Counted from the stretch's first letter, positions 906-38,614 are shown. The stretch is DNA of 64,000 nucleotides from Candidatus Dadabacteria bacterium (GCA_951812945.1 CATOTB010000002.1:27238-91237), one strand, 5' to 3'. The notes: a model not told the origin generated them from the sequence alone. Numbers and translations are program-made.

Positions 906-1322
906 CTACCATCTATACACCAACTTCATTCCGGTTGCTTCTTTCGCAATAGGTTCTAACCCAAAACCTTGCTCTAACCTTTTGTATGATAAGAGATTGG
1001 AACACACTTCATTATATTTATTTGCCGAACTACGCATATTCATACCCAAACCCATTAAACCGCCTCCAATAACCGCACTTGCAATTCCAACGGTTCTAGG
1101 ATTGTCATATATATCCTCATACGTATCGGGACTGCTTGCCATTACTATTCCACCGGCGGCATTTAGTCCTCCTATTATCATCCAGAACGTACCCCAACCA
1201 GTGCCTTTGGACGGTTCACCTTGGCATTGAGCTAGAGTCGGTTCTGCTGCTTCGACTTCTATTATTCCACTAAAACCAACAACAAAAACAAATACAACAA
1301 GTAAAGATAAAATCCTCCTCAT
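906..1322 (-). CDS. Small secreted/membrane protein with Gly-zipper-like segments (hypothetical)
   Basis: AAGGAGG lies 5 nt upstream of the ATG. N-terminal signal peptide MRRILSLLVVFVFVVGF...VEA-AEP. Gly-rich hydrophobic stretches GGLNAAGGIVMA and VIGGGLMGLGM. The gene sits in an AT-rich patch. Confidence 0.6.
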   Translation of the reverse strand: MRRILSLLVVFVFVVGFSGIIEVEAAEPTLAQCQGEPSKGTGWGTFWMIIGGLNAAGGIVMASSPDTYEDIYDNPRTVGIASAVIGGGLMGLGMNMRSSANKYNEVCSNLLSYKRLEQGFGLEPIAKEATGMKLVYRW

Positions 1323-1504: not shown

Positions 1505-1593
1505 ACTATCGAAACCAAATTTCCTATAACTCCATCCCTTGAACGGGTGTTTTATTCACGGAGACCCGACAGAGGGGGTTCCTTTCAACTAGT
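1505..1593 (-). promoter_or_regulatory. Conserved structured 5' leader RNA, copy 1 (unclassified cis-regulatory RNA candidate)
   Basis: About 65 nt are near-identical to 35260-35320 in the same orientation relative to the downstream gene. Closing stem is ACUA(G)UUGAAA / UUUCGAUAGU. The element starts a few nt downstream of the predicted -10. Confidence 0.45.
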
Positions 1594-32250: not shown

Positions 32251-32318
32251 GGGAAGATTCGGGGGAGGGATATCCAGCCGGGAGAGAATTCCCAGTTCCT
32301 TTGTTTCGCCTGCTCTAT

Positions 32319-33572
32319 CTAGATATGCTTTCTCAAGAAAACAGCCGAGAACAAGACAGACGCTATCAGGAGCAGGTTAAGCAAAGTGCTTTGAGGCGTA
32401 TTGGCGGTTGCGGCGATTGCGCACCCTTCGTCATCCTCGTCGTCGAGATAAATTCCTGAACCGACGATACGCCAAGACGGGGGAACACCCAAAGCGGTAA
32501 ACTCAGGTGGTGTTACGTCTACCACCTCAATATAGCTTTTCTTTATGGAGAAGCCGGGAACTTCATTTTTTTCGAGATAGCCCTCGTTGTTGTCCTCAGG
32601 AGTCTCGGGATGGTCCCAATGATACGTGACGAAACCGCTGTTTCCCTCTGCTAAATCTGCGAGGTCTCCGCTTCCGTTCGTTGTTGCATTAATAAAAGCT
32701 TCCAGAATATTTGCTCCGTCGCGCTGAATCGGGTCAGGATCGGTTAATGAAATACTTAGGCCGTAAAGATGGAAATCGAGTCCGTTTATAGTTGCGACGC
32801 CTTCAACCGGATCCAGCATGAAGGAGTATATAGAACCCTCCCTGTAATCTCCCTTGGCGAGACAGCCTGTTGTCCTGAGAGCTATCTGGACAGATTTTTC
32901 CCCGAGTTCTTCCCCCGCAGACTGTCTCTCTTCCGGTGTGCCTCCTGCGGCAAGGAAGACGAGTTGAGGGTCATCTCTGAGTAGCTGCAATCCTATCCTG
33001 CCCTGGCGCACTTTGAGTTTCTCGGCAACTGCTTTTACATATTGCACGAGAAGCCCTTCCTTTTCTTCCGGGTCTTGCTCATCGTTGACCCGCTTTGCGG
33101 TGACGGGAAGGCTGAACAGAGGGTCATCGCAGTTAGGATTGTCCCTCTCGACTAGATTGTAGTCATCCTTTGCGTGATGAAGACCCACTACATTGACTGT
33201 ACGACCGCCGGCAGAAAAGACATCCACACTCATTGCACACGCCACTCTGTCTTGTCCGTCATGGTGGTAATTCACACACGTCGGAGTATCCTCGCTGTCG
33301 AGCAGTGTCTGCACAGTTTCGGTCGTCATGCCGCTCCCATCTCTAAATTCGAAAGAAGCGAGATACTTGCTGAAATGCAAGTCGGAATACAACCCGTGAT
33401 TTACTATATATCCCTCGGGGTTTATAAGAATGGAGTAGACTTCGCCGTTATTGAAGACCCCTTGTTCCCTCGCCCGTTGTCCCAATATTACCAGTTCTTT
33501 GGCTTGCTCCGGGCGACTAAGGCTTGAGCCCTCCTGAATCAGGGTAATGTGCTTCGCGAAGTGACGAGCCAT
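32319..33572 (-). CDS. Extracytoplasmic cache-like (sCache_2-like) domain protein with a C-terminal hydrophobic anchor; the 5' end appears frameshifted (likely true start GTG at 33742)
   Basis: GFVTYHWDHPE...KKSYIEVV...WRIVGSGIYLDDED resembles the sCache_2 signature. C-terminal GC...TM helix...RKHI. The upstream reading frame stays open to 33732 but has no start codon. GGAGAGG-GTG sits in another frame. Confidence 0.6.
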   Translation of the reverse strand: MARHFAKHITLIQEGSSLSRPEQAKELVILGQRAREQGVFNNGEVYSILINPEGYIVNHGLYSDLHFSKYLASFEFRDGSGMTTETVQTLLDSEDTPTCVNYHHDGQDRVACAMSVDVFSAGGRTVNVVGLHHAKDDYNLVERDNPNCDDPLFSLPVTAKRVNDEQDPEEKEGLLVQYVKAVAEKLKVRQGRIGLQLLRDDPQLVFLAAGGTPEERQSAGEELGEKSVQIALRTTGCLAKGDYREGSIYSFMLDPVEGVATINGLDFHLYGLSISLTDPDPIQRDGANILEAFINATTNGSGDLADLAEGNSGFVTYHWDHPETPEDNNEGYLEKNEVPGFSIKKSYIEVVDVTPPEFTALGVPPSWRIVGSGIYLDDEDDEGCAIAATANTPQSTLLNLLLIASVLFSAVFLRKHI

Positions 33573-33767
33573 TTTCTCTATGGAATCCGCATCTCCAACA
33601 CCGACGCTTTCCGCATTTATGTCAAGGTCTGGACTGTGGGAATAACCCCTGTATTCATGAGCGGACGCTTCGGCACCGAATAAGAAACTAACGCCAAGTG
33701 CAAAAACAAACTTAAGAAAATCCCGTGCATTTTAATCTTCACGCTAACTACCTCTCCAATAAATTTT

Positions 33768-33792
33768 GGGAATTACATACATAAATAAAAAA
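33768..33792. repeat. Left terminal inverted repeat GGGAATTACATACATAAATAAAAAA (TSD TAAATTTT at 33760-33767)
   Basis: Exact reverse complement of 36825-36849. Confidence 0.9.
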
Positions 33793-33860
33793 GGAGAATT
33801 AAAACTATATTATGGAATGGATTACATTTCGATTCACAACTAGAAAACTAGTATATATTA

Positions 33861-34127
33861 CTACTGTTGCTGTTTAAGACGATCTATTGCGTCATTTAAA
33901 ATCTTAATTATTGCATTAGGACCTTCTTTTACATAATCATCACTTGGTGTAAGAGCAATCATTGTATCTAAATAATCAAGTTCAGGATCATTATATTCAA
34001 TTACAATTGCGACTTTTATTTCTTTATTTTCAGATAGAGGTTTCACTATCACATTACTAACTGCAATTTGAATCTGCTCCGCTAATTTTCCCGCCTCATC
34101 ATTTGGTCCAGATGGCTTTTTACTCAT
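33861..34127 (-). CDS. Hypothetical 88-aa protein (transposon-borne)
   Basis: AGGAGGAG SD upstream of the ATG. No recognisable family. Oriented outward towards the cache-domain gene. Confidence 0.55.
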   Translation of the reverse strand: MSKKPSGPNDEAGKLAEQIQIAVSNVIVKPLSENKEIKVAIVIEYNDPELDYLDTMIALTPSDDYVKEGPNAIIKILNDAIDRLKQQQ

Positions 34128-34268
34128 TCGACTCCTCCTAAGTTTTTTTAGAATATATCACTCTAGCCAACCTGTTCTTTCTGTCAAACATGTAAACTAA
34201 ACCCCCTCTAACTATTGACTTTTTCGTATTATTAGGTATACTTAGTACCACAATAAACGAGAAGTCAA

Positions 34269-35198
34269 ATGAGTAAAACAACCATAAGTGAATATAGCTT
34301 TCTAGAGAGATTCAACACCGAGGAAAAGGCAGTTGAGTTCTTTGAGATGTTAAGATGGAAAGGGGGAACAACCTGCCCTAGTTGCGGAGGAACTGACACA
34401 TACCCTCACAAGACAAGAAAGTTCTATTACCATTGCCGATCCCCCAAGTGCCGTAACCAATTCTCTTGCAAGACTGGAACTGTTATGCAGTCAAGTAAGC
34501 TCCCTGTCAGAATGTGGCTTTATGCTATGTATAAAGTCAGTATAGCGAGGAAAGGCATAAGCAGTCTCCAGTTAGCAAAGCAACTCGGTATCACTCAAAA
34601 GACTTCTTGGTTTATGATTCAGAGGATTAAAGAGGCTTGCGGGAATGACACCGATACAATGCTTTCCGGCATAGTTGAGATTGACGAAACCTATGTGGGA
34701 GGACTTGAAAGAAACAAGCACGAATCAAAGAAACTCAATGAAGGGCGTGGGGTAGTGGGGAAAGCTCCTGTACTCGGCATAAGGGAAAGAGGGGGGAAGG
34801 TGAAGGTTAAAGTGGTAGAAGACAGGAGAGCAGAAACCCTTAAAAGAGAGATAGCCGGGATAGTTGAAAAAGGCTCTATAGTTTTCACTGATGATTGGAA
34901 GTCCTACAACTGCCTTATTGACTCTGATTATGAACACGCCACTGTAAACCATTCGGCAAAAGAGTTTGTACGCGGGATGGCCTCTACAAACGGAATTGAG
35001 AGTGTTTGGGCCGTGCTTAAAAGAAGTATCATAGGAACCTATCATCACGTAAGCCTGAAACATCTACATCGTTACGTAAATGAGGCTGCCTTCCGTCTTA
35101 ATGAAGGGAATGTCAAGAATAAGCTAATGGACCGGCTAGAGGCCCTTTGCTGCAAGATGGTAGGGGTAACTCTTCCCTATAGAGCATTAACCGCATAA
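34269..35198 (+). CDS. IS1595-family (ISXO2-like) DDE transposase with N-terminal Zn ribbon
   Basis: CPSCGG...YHCRSPKCRNQFS Zn ribbon. EIDETYVGG, FTDDWKSY and NGIESVWAVLKR motifs. TTGACT-16-TATACT promoter at 34215-34242. Confidence 0.9.
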   Translation: MSKTTISEYSFLERFNTEEKAVEFFEMLRWKGGTTCPSCGGTDTYPHKTRKFYYHCRSPKCRNQFSCKTGTVMQSSKLPVRMWLYAMYKVSIARKGISSLQLAKQLGITQKTSWFMIQRIKEACGNDTDTMLSGIVEIDETYVGGLERNKHESKKLNEGRGVVGKAPVLGIRERGGKVKVKVVEDRRAETLKREIAGIVEKGSIVFTDDWKSYNCLIDSDYEHATVNHSAKEFVRGMASTNGIESVWAVLKRSIIGTYHHVSLKHLHRYVNEAAFRLNEGNVKNKLMDRLEALCCKMVGVTLPYRALTA

Positions 35199-35214
35199 CA
35201 GAAGTTCCCTAGTT

Positions 35215-35243
35215 TTTACTTATCCCCCAATCCAAGTTATAAT
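35215..35243 (+). promoter_or_regulatory. Sigma70-like promoter TTTACT-17-TATAAT of the cargo cassette
   Basis: Hexamers at 35215-35220 and 35238-35243. The conserved leader begins about 8 nt downstream. Confidence 0.45.
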
Positions 35244-35251
35244 CTTCTCCG

Positions 35252-35350
35252 CTTATTAGTTGAAACGAACCCGCTATGTCGGGTCTCCGTGAATAAAATA
35301 CCCTTTCTAGGGGAATTAACGGTACGTCCAAACTCGTTTTGACTAATAAG
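35252..35350 (+). promoter_or_regulatory. Conserved structured 5' leader RNA, copy 2 (unclassified cis-regulatory RNA candidate)
   Basis: 15-bp closing stem CUUAUUAGUUGAAAC / GUUUUGACUAAUAAG with two G-U pairs, inner hairpin ACCCG-CUAUGU-CGGGU and CCC-N6-GGG. Homologous to 1505-1593. Confidence 0.5.
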
Positions 35351-35389
35351 CAAGGCCCGACACCCATATAAACCAAAGGGCCAAGGAAA

Positions 35390-36304
35390 ATGCTTGTTAT
35401 GAAAAGGATTTTGTCTTTATTGGCTGTACTGCTTTTTGTTGTTGGTTGTGGAGGGGGAAGCGGGAGTGATTCTAATATCCAATCTACACAAGAGCCCTCG
35501 TGTCCTGAAAATGTGGATGGATTTTCTTATCAGGATCAGAGTTCATGGCAATACGTAGAAGAGCTTTGTGATAACGGTTCCGTAGTTTCATATTCCTGTC
35601 AAAGGGAAAACGGTGGTATTGTCGCTTTTGGGGGTAACTTGGACGGGGTTTGTGAGTATCTACATGAACAGAAAACCAACCCTCAACCTATGGAGAAAAC
35701 AGGATTTGAAGCATGTCCAAGTCCAGATGAATTAACTAAGTTTGTTAATACTTTCGACCCTGTAAACAGATTCGATTCAGCACCCGTTTTAAGTTTTGCC
35801 GATAGTTCCACGGAATATCATAAACAGCTTGCTAGGGAGTCTGTATCGCTTCTAAATAGAGCTTTGCCGGATGAATATGACATTACTGAATCTGGTGTGG
35901 ATGTAGAAGGAAGCGATGGAGGAGCACTACAAGTTCCAGAAGGCGAAATTTACATACAGTTTTTCCCAGAACAACCAAATGTTCCGGTAGGACTCGCTGT
36001 AGGAAGATACATAAGGATTACAGGTGGTGCGGAACATGAGATTGGCAGGAGTTCTGCTTTACGTAAGTCCTATGTTCTTTTTATAGCACACGAGATTATG
36101 CATGTCCTAGGGTTTTCCGGGCACATAGACCTTCCAACTAATTCTATAATGATGGACGGGTTTTATATCATAGACCGTTTTGTAACTGATCGTGAATGGC
36201 CTAGAGAAGAGATACTTTCTGCTGTTGATGTATGGGGGATCAGATATTTCTACGAGGACGCAACAGGAGACCCGGAAGAATGGTTAGAAAACAGGTGTCA
36301 ATGA
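35390..36304 (+). CDS. Secreted lipoprotein with metzincin-type zinc-protease motif
   Basis: Lipobox FVVGC. HEIMHVLGFSGH (HExxHxxGxxH) followed by a possible Met-turn NSIMMDG. By homology to the 906-1322 gene the start may be the second ATG at 35399 (MKRILSLL). Confidence 0.7.
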   Translation: MLVMKRILSLLAVLLFVVGCGGGSGSDSNIQSTQEPSCPENVDGFSYQDQSSWQYVEELCDNGSVVSYSCQRENGGIVAFGGNLDGVCEYLHEQKTNPQPMEKTGFEACPSPDELTKFVNTFDPVNRFDSAPVLSFADSSTEYHKQLARESVSLLNRALPDEYDITESGVDVEGSDGGALQVPEGEIYIQFFPEQPNVPVGLAVGRYIRITGGAEHEIGRSSALRKSYVLFIAHEIMHVLGFSGHIDLPTNSIMMDGFYIIDRFVTDREWPREEILSAVDVWGIRYFYEDATGDPEEWLENRCQ

Positions 36305-36322
36305 TTAACAGGAGGAAACACA

Positions 36323-36457
36323 ATGGGAGTAGAAGTACTATTTTTGGTAATACCCTTAACTGCGTTGGGGGTTCTAGTAGGCTTTACTTGGTTAATAGTA
36401 AATGATTACAAGTCGGGGCATACAAGAAAAAGTGAAAAGTTTTTTAGTGATGATTAA
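36323..36457 (+). CDS. 44-aa single-TM peptide (hypothetical)
   Basis: AGGAGG lies 7 nt upstream. MGVEVLFLVIPLTALGVLVGFTWLIVNDYKSGHTRKSEKFFSDD. Starts 19 nt after the metzincin stop codon. Confidence 0.4.
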   Translation: MGVEVLFLVIPLTALGVLVGFTWLIVNDYKSGHTRKSEKFFSDD

Positions 36458-36472
36458 TAGGAGGAGAAAAAA

Positions 36473-36670
36473 ATGAAAAAAGAACTTACATGCTTGGATG
36501 GGTCAAAAATTGCTTTTCGTCTTCAAGAAGAACCTGATAGCGATGAGTTAATTCTTTATGTCGATGTTTATACAGAGGGTGGGTTAACATCGTCTCCAGT
36601 AGCCACCTCCGAAGCTGAAAAAGAGATTCGAGAGGCAATAATTTCGCTATTTCAAGAATATCCCCGTTAG
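36473..36670 (+). CDS. 65-aa acidic hypothetical protein
   Basis: AGGAGGAG SD upstream. A fully antisense ORF (36486-36710) also has an SD, so the coding strand is uncertain. Confidence 0.4.
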   Translation: MKKELTCLDGSKIAFRLQEEPDSDELILYVDVYTEGGLTSSPVATSEAEKEIREAIISLFQEYPR

Positions 36671-36824
36671 TTTTTTTCGGTTCATTAGATAAAGAAGAAT
36701 TTTTAGTCATTTTTTGCTCCTGTTATAATATGTTATGACAATTCTTGAGGGGTTAGTAAGAGGCTGGGTTTTCAATTGCCCCCAACCTCCTAATGGCGTA
36801 TTTCCTCCGCCAGCTAATCTCTCA

Positions 36825-36849
36825 TTTTTTATTTATGTATGTAATTCCC
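36825..36849. repeat. Right terminal inverted repeat (TSD TAAATTTT at 36850-36857)
   Basis: Exact reverse complement of 33768-33792. Confidence 0.9.
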
Positions 36850-36978
36850 TAAATTTTTTACCGCACTTAAATAACAAATGACGGCCAACAGCCACCTTAT
36901 TAAATCAAAGCTGAAGTTGAAATGCAATAAATACATAGGGGTTTCAAAAAGAGCTATTTATGGCTTAGAATAAGCCTC

Positions 36979-37833: not shown

Positions 37834-37907
37834 GTCCCCGTAGCTCAGTTGGATAGAGCGCAGGATTCCTAATCCTGAGGCCGCAGGTTCGAATCCTGCC
37901 GGGGACG
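37834..37907 (+). tRNA. tRNA-Arg (anticodon CCU)
   Basis: Manual cloverleaf: acceptor GTCCCCG/CGGGGAC, anticodon arm CAGGA-TTCCTAA-TCCTG, T-arm GCAGG-TTCGAAT-CCTGC. CCA is not encoded. Confidence 0.9.
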
Positions 37908-37921
37908 CGCCAGCAGAAATC

Positions 37922-38614
37922 CTACGAAAAAAACTGCCTGAAGATCATCCAGATGATCTTAACCCCGGCCATAACGCTTCCCGTGATTGTTCCGGTTACC
38001 TTTGAAGTTCCTATTCTCTTCCTGTAACTCACCGGAACCTCTGTGCAGCGAAATCCTTTCTTCGCGGCCTTCACCTGCATCTCAACCGTCCATCCGAATG
38101 TTTTGTCTCTCATATCGAGGGAGAGCAGTTTGTCGTATCCTATGGCCCTGAAAGGACCGAGGTCGGTAAAGCTCACTCCGTAAAACAGTCTTATAAGCCT
38201 GGTCGCCACGTAGTTGCCCACAAGGGCCTGGGGCAAAAGAGCCCCTTTCTGCCTTTCGCCGATGGTTCTTGACCCTATGACGAGATCATAGCCCTCCTCA
38301 ATTATCTGGGAAACGAGGTCTTTCATTTCTTCCGGATAATCAGAGTAGTCCCCATCCAGAAATACTATAATATCAGGTATATACGAAGAGTTCTTAATGT
38401 AATCCATCCCCGCAAGGCAAGCTTGTCCGTAGCCCCTCCTAACTTCGTCTATGACCGTGGCTCCGCAGCCCGAGGCAACCTGCGCGGTGGAGTCGGTCGA
38501 GCCGTTATTCACGACCACTATCTCCGTTACGAGGTCCCGGGGAATATCCGAGATTACCTGTCCTATGGAGCGCTCTTCGTTAAGCGCCGGAATTATCACG
38601 ACCGTTTTTTTCAT
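37922..38614 (-). CDS. Glycosyltransferase family 2 (dolichyl-phosphate sugar synthase-like)
   Basis: VVIIPALNEE...NNGSTD...DGDYSD GT-A motifs. Confidence 0.8.
   Translation of the reverse strand: MKKTVVIIPALNEERSIGQVISDIPRDLVTEIVVVNNGSTDSTAQVASGCGATVIDEVRRGYGQACLAGMDYIKNSSYIPDIIVFLDGDYSDYPEEMKDLVSQIIEEGYDLVIGSRTIGERQKGALLPQALVGNYVATRLIRLFYGVSFTDLGPFRAIGYDKLLSLDMRDKTFGWTVEMQVKAAKKGFRCTEVPVSYRKRIGTSKVTGTITGSVMAGVKIIWMIFRQFFS

Follow-up and report, generated by a model that had tools for sequence, protein, structure and literature searches.

The window (the whole 64-kb stretch of DNA analysed) carries an element of 3,082 bp at 33768–36849, inserted between a leftward cache-like gene and a glutaminyl cyclase gene of a Dadabacteria-like genome. 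The element and its immediate borders contain the following features.

33760–33767 (no strand): left copy of the 8-bp target-site duplication TAAATTTT, present once in the orthologous empty site of L034
33768–33792 (+): IRL, identical to IRR at 25 of 25 positions, with weaker similarity to about 33797; common to 14 other complete copies
33861–34127 (−): 88-aa ORF, accessory to the basic IS and divergent from the transposase; three homologues at 82–88% identity
34215–34242 (+): transposase promoter TTGACT-16-TATACT, agreeing with the consensus at 10 of 12 positions; L108, L110 and L112 have a nearly identical one
34269–35198 (+): IS1595-family transposase of 309 aa with zinc ribbon and DDE domain (Pfam, NCBIfam, invariant residues)
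35215–35243 (+): passenger operon promoter TTTACT-17-TATAAT, shown by the leader alignment to be conserved between elements
35251–35389 (+): structured 5′ leader RNA, sRNA-Xcc1-like (Rfam RF02221 31.1 bits, fold z-score −3.0, covariation)
35399–36304 (+): lipoprotein, 301 aa from the ATG at 35399, in an ORF open from 35390; the lipobox is VVGC, and the C-terminal domain, which contains HEIMHVLGFSGH, is metzincin-like
36323–36457 (+): 44-aa single-pass membrane peptide, 72–80% identity in L007, L108 and L109; PspB-like matches at sub-threshold level only
36473–36670 (+): 65-aa acidic protein, with a homologue at the same position in L109 (61% identical)
36671–36824 (+): right-hand tail, with an outward-facing extended −10 (TGTTATAAT, ~36721–36729) and then a foldable segment of ~100 nt running into the IRR T-run
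36825–36849 (−): IRR, exact reverse complement of IRL
36850–36857 (no strand): right copy of TAAATTTT, likewise present once in the L034 empty site

The 25-bp sequence of IRL, GGGAATTACATACATAAATAAAAAA, and its exact reverse complement at IRR are the only two matches in the 64-kb window, allowing 3 or 6 mismatches, and none of 100 dinucleotide-preserving shuffles contained any match. Inward of the 25 bp, four of the next five bases still agree, after which the similarity decays. Directly outside both ends stands TAAATTTT. The orthologous cache/glutaminyl-cyclase intergenic region is unbroken across the insertion point in four related genomes (L034, L025, L027 and L037). In L034 the empty site is exactly CCTCTCCAATAAATTTTTTACCGCAC, in which TAAATTTT occurs once and the whole length of the element is missing; the sites in the other three genomes are near-identical. 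The perfect ends and the 8-bp duplication claimed in a preliminary description of this DNA are thereby borne out, together with its expectation that an empty site would hold exactly one 8-mer. It had also placed the insertion between a cache-domain gene and a glutaminyl cyclase gene. That position stands, but the cache assignment corresponds to a Pfam match below threshold (E = 7.8e-4, 19 bits against a cut-off of 26.5). The element is indeed AT-richer than its flanks, with a G+C content of 0.401 as against 0.505 and 0.498 over the 10 kb on each side. It may be the family as a whole that is low in G+C, in which case the value would be no sign of recent arrival.

Copies elsewhere end at the same termini, as had been anticipated. 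Fourteen further complete copies, in other genomes or contigs from related MAGs, are bounded by GGGAATTA(C/T)ATACATAAATAAAAA, each with its own perfect 8-bp A/T-rich duplication. They range in size from 1,863 to 4,515 bp, and bare IS copies of 1,411 bp occur in OZ251221.1. The GGGAATTAT-type ends of the window element may resemble the consensus of the ISNwi1 group, one of the named IS1595 subgroups (ISPna2, IS1595, ISSod11, ISNwi1, ISNha5, IS1016 and ISH4), which are told apart by catalytic motif and end consensus. The lipoprotein operon lies within the IRs of L007, L108, L109, L110 and L112, at different target sites, and the 3,082 bp missing from the empty site include the cargo. The passenger genes proposed earlier are therefore part of the element. 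The transposase is divergent from the lipoprotein operon in nine copies (L002, L004, L007, L108, L109, L110, L112, L114 and L115) and convergent with it in L111. Among the lipoprotein-carrying copies examined, only the window element has a transposase reading into the operon.

The transposase gene (930 bp) matches Pfam DDE_Tnp_IS1595 (PF12762) over its full length (1–153 of 153, E = 4.8e-46) and, at the N-terminus of its product, Zn_ribbon_IS1595 (PF12760, E = 3.8e-10). Against the NCBIfam model for IS1595 family transposases (NF033547), it scores 205 bits with a cut-off of 75. All 51 of the 51 residues invariant in a 30-sequence clade alignment are retained, including D139, D208, E244, C36, C39, C56 and C61; K251, nearly invariant (at least 90% of aligned relatives), is also present. 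Both the intact IS1595-family transposase and its own promoter, conserved in other copies, are thus confirmed. The protein is at most 43% identical to the plasmid-borne annotated IS1595 transposases.

Within the IS1595 family, the window element belongs to the transporter IS (tIS), a kind already described: the category is set out for IS1595 in 10.1101/2021.05.26.445724, and Siguier et al. 2009 is cited in a further source. Like the tIS of IS1595 (Siguier, Gagnevin and Chandler 2009; ISfinder/TnCentral usage), it combines a single DDE transposase bearing an N-terminal zinc ribbon with short terminal IRs, an 8-bp target duplication and, between the IRs, passenger genes unrelated to transposition. 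It differs from the known ones in its cargo, a leader RNA with a metzincin-like lipoprotein operon, which as far as we found is apparently undescribed. The IS1595-family element itself is ordinary, although the divergence of its transposase means that it would take a new IS name. The only new feature of this transposon is the conserved folded leader RNA before the operon.

The ORFs within the element are all as earlier described. The 88-aa ORF does lie on the opposite strand, but its treatment as loose cargo does not hold, since it occupies the same position within a 1,863-bp basic IS in L116–L118. Repeat I5 is an inverted duplication in which the RBS and start of this ORF match those of the transposase. 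Searches of Pfam, NCBIfam and further profiles gave no family match for this ORF, and its structure model (pLDDT 46) was unusable. Window positions 33761–35188 align with L116 5381–3939 at 82%, and positions 35236–36658 align with L109 at 79–81%. Judged from these alignments, the window element is a 1.86-kb basic IS with its tail of ~390 bp replaced by a lipoprotein operon of 1.6 kb.

The lipoprotein gene is present as reported; its start is most likely the ATG at 35399 (MKRI..., as in all homologues) and not position 35390. In the lipoprotein family (n = 16), HExxHxxGxxH is invariant in 16 of 16 members (H234, E235, H238, G241 and H245). The same motif characterizes the metzincins (the karilysin/MMP catalytic domain, snapalysin, astacin). 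The conserved SIMM, with S252 invariant, lies 7–10 residues after H245, the third His (its S-I-M at 7–9), at the place expected for a Met-turn, in a region (residues 244–274) where the model has a pLDDT below 50. The AlphaFold model reaches a pLDDT of 62 overall and 70–90 in the catalytic domain. Its Foldseek matches are almost exclusively metzincins (probability 0.8–1.0, TM-score normalised to target 0.4–0.58), the best PDB matches being karilysin, snapalysin, MMPs and BMP-1, which are weak at E = 2.4e-3 to 0.1 with a mean model pLDDT of 62. In contrast to the metzincins, the family members carry a lipoprotein signal peptide and an N-terminal region that is variable and contains cysteine, and the family falls outside the curated families: Pfam, NCBIfam, PHROG, PADLOC and PDB-sequence searches returned no significant match for the lipoprotein. 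Behind the earlier term metzincin-like there are thus only the motif and a weak similarity of fold, and no curated sequence family. We infer that the passenger lipoprotein is secreted and zinc-protease-like, with probable protease activity. All seven homologues with retrieved context (P0002, P0003, P0004, P0007, P0009, P0012 and P0016) adjoin an IS1595 transposase. For the 65-aa acidic protein, Pfam, NCBIfam and further profile searches found no family.

The leader RNA preceding the operon contains these helices, all on the plus strand.

35251–35268 / 35334–35351 (+): outer stem, with strong covariation
35269–35273 / 35280–35284 (+): hairpin H1
35278–35283 / 35356–35361 (+): long-range helix P1
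35287–35290 / 35319–35322 with 35301–35303 / 35310–35312 (+): core hairpin
35354–35358 / 35378–35382 (+): hairpin H4, abutting the Shine-Dalgarno at 35383–35389

The structured leader suspected in the preliminary description is a real conserved RNA, with a nearly invariant core and a strongly covarying outer stem. Across 15 distinct sequences, both sides of the outer stem are changed in 13 of 16 pairs, and 95% of cells are paired, compared with 28–52% when the partners are slid. This level of covariation was reached by none of 500 shuffles. For P1, compared in 14 sequences, 100% of cells are paired, and the variation comprises one compensatory double change and several wobbles. Because P1 and H1 are nearly invariant, covariation separates them weakly. 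H4 forms in 12 of 12 copies through two different solutions, as judged from single-sequence folds and not from a formal alignment test. In all 13 of 13 full-length copies, a Shine-Dalgarno and a start codon of the same orientation lie at a fixed 20–50 nt from the structure. The leader module is also found without nearby IS ends, in L106 and L119/L120.

We propose that the invariant GUCGGG may pair either upstream, forming H1, or with the downstream CCCGAC, forming P1. The CCCGAC could alternatively pair with the sequence abutting the Shine-Dalgarno, forming H4. Adjoining the ribosome-binding site and excluding one another, these helices suggest that the leader is a cis-regulatory switch. The leader, ~140 nt in length, would thus act in cis on translation initiation, probably by switching between these helices.

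The leader appears to be a distant variant of sRNA-Xcc1, a relative that is sub-threshold yet reciprocally detectable. It scores 31.1 bits against Rfam RF02221, below the gathering score of 53, and five other copies score 31–35.5 bits, making six independent Dadabacteria copies in all; true sRNA-Xcc1 members reach 68.8 and 72.6 bits. Conversely, our own covariance model, R1, picks up two true sRNA-Xcc1 loci (E ~5e-4), in which it detects the core hairpin. Aligned to RF02221, the window leader has P1 and the first hairpin with its conserved internal loops, whereas the second hairpin inside P1 is absent from this alignment, the region aligning poorly. Both RNAs share the closing GUCGGG...CCCGAC, literally identical in a Pseudomonas member, and the core hairpin internal loops AAUAnAAnACCC-loop-GGGGAAUA. 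Each of them also immediately precedes an ORF located on mobile DNA. Unlike sRNA-Xcc1, the window leader has, in place of the second hairpin, the 3′ arm of a covarying stem of 16–18 bp. Since this arm pairs with sequence 5′ of the core, P1 would have to be a pseudoknot or an alternative helix. Two further helices, H1 and H4, come in addition to those of sRNA-Xcc1, and the downstream genes encode exported proteins in place of SymE or BRO/KilA-N proteins.

It is possible, though unlikely, that the leader is instead a stand-alone gene for a trans-acting small RNA that merely lies upstream of the lipoprotein and plays no role in cis. Papers citing Chen et al. 2011 describe sRNA-Xcc1 as trans-acting and under HrpG/HrpX control in Xanthomonas. 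A nearly invariant core beside a variable flanking stem is also what an RNA functional in itself would present. However, no terminator was found between the structure and the lipoprotein ORF, and the set distance and orientation of the Shine-Dalgarno and start codon in the full-length copies, as well as the conserved H4 linking the core to the Shine-Dalgarno, favor a role in cis. Moreover, true sRNA-Xcc1 members themselves directly precede ORFs (symE, ORF6N, BRO and KilA-N-like).

Taken as a whole, positions 33768–36849 very probably represent a single mobile unit, an IS1595 tIS of mosaic build with a passenger operon and a cis-acting leader. DDE-transposase-mediated insertion into the A/T-rich 8-bp target TAAATTTT would have duplicated that target. 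The left 1.43 kb (IRL, 88-aa ORF and transposase) is collinear with the basic IS known from elsewhere, and the operon that stands in place of the IS tail brings its own promoter and encodes the lipoprotein, the 44-aa peptide and the 65-aa protein. The metagenome-type assembly and the sharp drop in G+C inside the block could point to a 3.1-kb piece mis-joined into the contig. We consider such an artefact barely conceivable, as a mis-join would neither turn an 8-mer that occurs once at the orthologous site into a perfect duplication nor create termini identical to those of 14 independent copies, all of which have duplications of their own. Capture by the IS of an integron-type gene cassette, or of another site-specific module, as the passenger block is also highly improbable. 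Integron cassettes of Xanthomonas are the best-known setting of sRNA-Xcc1, and the leader module occurs in places without nearby IS ends. Nevertheless, an ORF and Pfam survey revealed no integrase gene in or near the element, and the passenger block is bounded by IS1595 ends with the 8-bp duplication, where a cassette would be expected to have attC-like sites. The geometry of the RNA, a covarying stem around a conserved core with a promoter upstream and a Shine-Dalgarno downstream, is that of a leader.

More weight attaches to the idea of a dead mosaic, in which an element of the 88-aa-ORF type and one of the lipoprotein type recombined after insertion into a one-off arrangement, so that the ends and the duplication record the insertion of one parent. 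The two halves of the window element match different element variants, and its transposase, alone among the lipoprotein copies, reads into the operon. Nested or composite copies exist elsewhere (L115 and L117; L007 has an internal degenerate IR), and the inverted duplicate I5 hints at past rearrangement. Even so, we regard this account as rather improbable: the IRs and the duplication are perfect, the full-length transposase retains every invariant residue, and nothing needed for mobility is visibly missing. An internal rearrangement leaves the mutually identical ends unaltered, and hence it should make no difference which way the transposase gene points. For the single mobile unit that we favor, recent arrival and present-day mobility, as proposed in the preliminary description, are plausible.

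Some observations bear on this point from the other side. No second copy of the element was found in the 64-kb window, and the protein database search returned nothing more than 87% identical to the window transposase. Given its unique tandem order of transposase and operon, the window element could be a rearranged, possibly crippled derivative, although its ends and transposase are intact.

The right-hand tail was also compared with those of other copies. ARAGORN found no tRNA in this part of the window, and the fold of the segment is modest, with a z-score of −2.5. In L109, L108 and L007, the right-end alignment places the same extended −10 promoter before a tRNA-like gene of ~95 nt.

The insertion is real, and it was interpreted correctly from the sequence. 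Its 25-bp left terminal inverted repeat (IR), GGGAATTACATACATAAATAAAAAA, lies at 33768-33792, and the exact reverse complement lies at 36825-36849. Similarity extends inward from the repeats, with four of the next five positions identical, and then decays. With up to 3 or 6 mismatches allowed, the 25-mer matches the 64-kb window twice, at the two element ends, and not at all in dinucleotide-preserving shuffles; no second copy of the element was found within the 64-kb window, and look-ups of the exact transposase and glutaminyl cyclase proteins gave no match. The 8-mer TAAATTTT stands directly outside both IRs. The perfect ends and flanking duplication of the preliminary description were thus verified, as was an interior richer in A+T than its surroundings (G+C 0.401 versus 0.505 and 0.498 in the 10 kb on either side). 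Orthologous regions were obtained through the neighboring glutaminyl cyclase gene, by which the closest relative is a Candidatus Dadabacteria chromosome (92% protein identity). In the retrieved loci that have the cache-like gene to the left of the element (L025, L027, L034 and L037), the alignment is unbroken and joins window position 33767 to 36850. The empty site in L034 reads CCTCTCCAATAAATTTTTTACCGCAC, with a single TAAATTTT, as had been predicted. Therefore, compared with the ancestral state, the 3,082 bp and one 8-mer are inserted.

Sister copies were gathered by searches with the transposase and with the cargo proteins, and the 25-mer was also found in other Dadabacteria and in Thermodesulfobacteriota MAGs. 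Fourteen further complete copies share the ends assigned to the window element, terminating in GGGAATTA(C/T)ATACATAAATAAAAA throughout, and each (14/14) is flanked by a perfect A/T-rich 8-bp duplication of its own. Bare 1,411-bp IS copies are additionally present in OZ251221.1.

Table. Complete sister copies: locus, length and duplication.
L116, 1,863 bp, TTAAATTT
L117, 2,255 bp, ATAAATAG
L008 (OZ251221.1), 2,286 bp, TTCTTCAC
L010 (OZ251221.1), 2,286 bp, TTAATTAA
L013 (OZ251221.1), 2,286 bp, GAAAGATT
L017 (OZ251221.1), 2,286 bp, TTTCAGAA
L018 (OZ251221.1), 2,286 bp, TAACTTAT
L021, 2,603 bp, AAAACTTA
L109, 3,133 bp, AAAACTTT
L110, 3,486 bp, CAAACTTT
L007, 3,969 bp, AACATATT
L112, 3,982 bp, AAATCTTT
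L108, 4,254 bp, CAATGTTT
L115, 4,515 bp, AACAAGTC

The 8-mers flanking the 1,411-bp copies (L011, L012, L014, L015 and L016) are mismatched but pair between different copies: TTACTTAT is the right flank of L012 and the left flank of L014, and TTAATTAT is the right flank of L014 and the left flank of L015. This cross-pairing in the 4-Mb genome is a signature of IS-mediated recombination or rearrangement. Sister copies are themselves targets for other IS elements. At OZ252213.1, the transposase gene is broken by an IS256-like element in L002 (L002/L019) and by an IS21-like istA/istB element in L004 (L004/L020); the latter type also interrupts it in L114. Short IR-bounded or solo-IR fragments (L003 4576-5089, L117 5374-5765, L115 2951-3422, L001 4559 and 5839) comprise a MITE-like pair of ~514 bp that lacks a matching duplication, a piece of ~392 bp adjoining a complete copy, and nested incomplete copies, which indicates non-autonomous derivatives of the same IS family.

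A gap of 2 nt separates the duplication from the GGAGAGG Shine-Dalgarno sequence of the leftward cache-like gene (GTG start at 33742), so the insertion cuts this gene off from any promoter in the ~250-bp divergent intergenic region. Within 33617-33767, at about 33704, the gene is also 1 nt short in an A-run (5 A versus 6 A in L034, L025 and L027), which splits the signal peptide, now in a 41-aa ORF, from the 417-aa body. This could reflect gene decay after promoter loss or a homopolymer sequencing error. The orthologue in L034 is itself broken into three ORFs. Many related Dadabacteria (L026, L028-L033, L035-L036, L038-L040, L047) do not have the cache-like gene, and the flanks of window 32256-36937 are directly adjacent there; the spot is therefore variable independently of the transposon. 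Unrelated insertions occur nearby in other genomes. In the closest relative, a 1.4-kb insertion without IS1595 ends stands just 5' of the glutaminyl cyclase gene (L025 4541-5960, ~window 36940-36946), and at ~window 37910-37923, beside tRNA-Arg (37834-37908), there are ~2-kb insertions in both L037 (6921-8965) and L041 (6830-8914).

The 309-aa transposase was correctly recognized as intact and of IS1595 type. It matches Pfam DDE_Tnp_IS1595 across the full profile (E 4.8e-46), Zn_ribbon_IS1595, and the NCBIfam model 'IS1595 family transposase' (205 bits; cut-off 75). In an alignment of 30 sequences (51-87% identity), it keeps every invariant residue, including D139 (EIDETY), D208 (FTDDW), E244 (NGIES) and the four zinc-ribbon cysteines, together with K251, which is conserved in at least 90% of the sequences. 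With 87% identity to its nearest database relative and no more than 43% to annotated plasmid copies, it would receive a new IS name. The proposed promoter TTGACT-16-TATACT was located and is near-identical in L108, L110 and L112. A consensus promoter scan alone was not significant (9 found, 7.7 expected), and promoters were accepted solely because they are conserved between copies.

As a transposon, the element is a transporter IS (tIS, an IS1595-type element with passenger genes) of an already known type, a concept traced to Siguier et al. 2009. With its empty site and 14 sister copies, it provides a well-documented example from Dadabacteria, a little-studied small-genome lineage. The element is a mosaic whose modules occupy different slots in sister elements, because two of its parts align with different elements and the operon is placed differently among the sisters. 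Window 33761-35188 aligns end to end (82%) with the 1,863-bp perfect-IR element; for 35236-36658, the aligned partner is the lipoprotein operon of L108, L109, L110, L112, L114 and L115. The operon is divergent from the transposase in nine copies (L002, L004, L007, L108, L109, L110, L112, L114 and L115), convergent in L111, and in tandem downstream in the window. A simple inversion of the transposase block was dropped once the 1,863-bp basic IS was found to have the 88-aa ORF; no inverted repeats mark the breakpoints. The window element is best described as this basic IS with its ~390-bp tail exchanged for a 1.6-kb operon. An integron-cassette origin of the passenger block, prompted by the leader RNA discussed below, was also rejected, as there is no integrase and the boundaries are IS ends.

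The 88-aa ORF does lie on the opposite strand, as first described, but it is not loose cargo. Its three homologues (82-88% identity; L116-L118) are likewise divergent from an adjacent 309-aa transposase and lie at the equivalent place in the 1,863-bp element, making the ORF part of the basic IS. Its ribosome-binding site and first codons (34118-34137) are an inverted near-copy (18/20) of those of the transposase gene (34259-34278; GAGRAGTCRAATGAGTAAAA), and thus the two divergent genes have matching translation-initiation regions. Elsewhere the cargo differs: the 2,286-bp copies encode a DNA methyltransferase fused to an HNH domain, and an Owenweeksia copy has methyltransferase and nuclease-like genes. 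One IS backbone can therefore exchange cargo modules (lipoprotein operon, methyltransferase-HNH gene or tRNA-like genes) or do without cargo. The tRNA or ~95-nt tRNA-like genes are found in several sister transposons.

Table. tRNA or tRNA-like genes at sister loci.
L109 6433-6528
L108 6443-6537
L007 4160-4254, minus strand
L112 6173-6273
L105 2988-3086
L111 5776-5865 and 7227-7302
L115 5936-6012 and 6041-6114

For two of the tRNA-like genes, ARAGORN gives 'tRNA-???' and an anticodon of 2 nt. The gene of L108 and L109 lies 17-18 nt inside the right IR and follows a conserved TGTTATAAT promoter. This promoter recurs in the window element (about 36721-36729), where it is followed by a different ~100-nt segment with no detectable tRNA. 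This outward-facing extended -10 at the right end is directed toward the glutaminyl cyclase gene.

The transposon itself is of modest interest; what merits specialist attention is the combination of a transposon-restricted, metzincin-like lipoprotein and its conserved, sRNA-Xcc1-like leader. The lipoprotein probably starts at ATG 35399 (MKRI...) and has a VVGC lipobox. Only 15 relatives, none annotated, were found among 5.8 billion clustered proteins. Throughout the family, HExxHxxGxxH is invariant and is followed after 7-10 residues by a conserved S-I-M-M. An AlphaFold model built from the family alignment is of moderate confidence (mean pLDDT 62; 70-90 across most of the C-terminal domain). 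Its closest PDB folds are nearly all metzincins (karilysin, snapalysin, MMP-2, -7, -9, -12 and -13, BMP-1, meprin), with statistically weak matches (E from 2.4e-3, probability 0.8-1.0, target-normalized TM-score 0.4-0.58); a PDB sequence search with the family profile returned noise. The metzincin likeness noted at the outset is therefore supported by the motif and a weak fold match and does not extend to family membership, and 'metzincin-like' is a reasonable fold-level label.

An IS1595 transposase adjoins every homologue for which context was retrieved (seven proteins). The family thus appears to exist solely as a passenger of this IS, and its members would be candidate factors for host interaction or competition that spread by transposition. 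Conserved counterparts of the 44-aa membrane peptide are present in three copies (L007, L108 and L109), and L109 also has one of the 65-aa acidic protein. L111 and L112 instead encode a TM2-domain protein after the lipoprotein. The 88-, 44- and 65-aa proteins have no significant match in Pfam, NCBIfam, PADLOC or PHROGs, and the model of the 88-aa protein (pLDDT 46) is too poor for a fold search. A role for the small proteins as protease partner or inhibitor is speculation.

The leader ahead of the lipoprotein, described earlier simply as structured, contains a covarying stem. A covariance model, R1, was built from 12 distinct copies and recovered a divergent leader in L111 (98.7 bits) and one in a JGI metagenome (L119/L120; 70 bits). 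A pattern search gave five loci in the genome collection and two in the metagenome collection, the latter being one locus found twice, so the sample is small, at 15 distinct sequences. Across these, the 16-pair outer stem (35251-35268 / 35334-35351) changes on both sides in 13 of its pairs. In it, 95% of cells are paired, versus 28-52% after a shift of the partners by 1-3 columns, and its covariation was matched by none of 500 shuffles. The inner helix (35287-35290 / 35319-35322) shows double-sided change in two pairs, and the core within the outer stem is nearly invariant.

Three further helices are mutually exclusive. P1, Rfam's name for a long-range pairing left out of R1, joins GUCGGG (35278-35283) to CCCGAC (35356-35361); 100% of its cells are paired, with one double change (U-A to C-G, in L111) and several wobbles. 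In H1, seen in the minimum-free-energy fold, GUCGGG pairs instead with an upstream ACCCG. In H4, GGCCCGAC pairs with the stretch that directly precedes the Shine-Dalgarno; this helix occurs in 12/12 copies by one of two solutions, a long-loop GGCCC/GGGYC or a short-loop CCGAC/GUCGG. Such exclusivity is the geometry of an expression platform, and we therefore infer, slightly favoring this reading, that the leader is a cis-acting switch on translation initiation. The helices form a compact set that is directly testable with reporter constructs.

Rfam sRNA-Xcc1 (RF02221) scores 31.1 bits at 35278-35369, and 31-35.5 bits at the equivalent positions of five other copies. Because these scores fall below the gathering score of 53, we class the Dadabacteria leader as a related variant and not as a member. 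Two true members, in a Pseudomonas aeruginosa plasmid (72.6 bits) and a Neisseria gonorrhoeae record (68.8 bits), are both found at the correct place by R1 (E 3.5e-4 and 7.6e-4; 6 kb). The Pseudomonas RNA has a closing helix of identical sequence (GUCGGG...CCCGAC), and its core hairpin is likewise AAUAcAAgACCC-GAAA-GGGGAAUA. Both members lie directly 5' of an ORF, encoding a BRO-family and a KilA-N-like protein, in agreement with published reports of sRNA-Xcc1 preceding symE in integron cassettes of Xanthomonas and an ORF6N gene in APSE phages. In contrast, the Dadabacteria leader lacks the second Rfam hairpin, has an extra long clamp stem as well as H1 and H4, and precedes genes for exported proteins, namely lipoproteins; other signal-peptide proteins follow it in L105, L106, L119 and at window 906-1322.

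The leader would tie sRNA-Xcc1 to a cis-leader role on mobile DNA in very distant phyla. It is conceivable, though we consider it rather unlikely, that the sRNA-Xcc1 fold is a widespread, unrecognized class of cis-regulatory leader (riboswitch-like or factor-binding) that gates mobile-element cargo, rather than a trans-acting sRNA of Xanthomonas. The Dadabacteria version would then be a distinct sub-class on an IS1595 transposon, with a 16-18-bp covarying clamp and three exclusive helices linking the invariant core to the ribosome-binding site, and would control a transposon-restricted secreted metzincin.

A partial leader copy lies on the minus strand at window 1509-1588 (32.5 bits with R1). 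It comprises the 5' half of the leader and a similar signal-peptide start, and stands upstream of small secreted-protein ORFs on the minus strand (1333-1518 and 906-1322). No IRs were detectable around this fragment (900-1950); beside it, at 1797-1901, tblastn faintly matches residues 11-45 of the transposase (E 0.007). The fragment is possibly the remnant of an older element.
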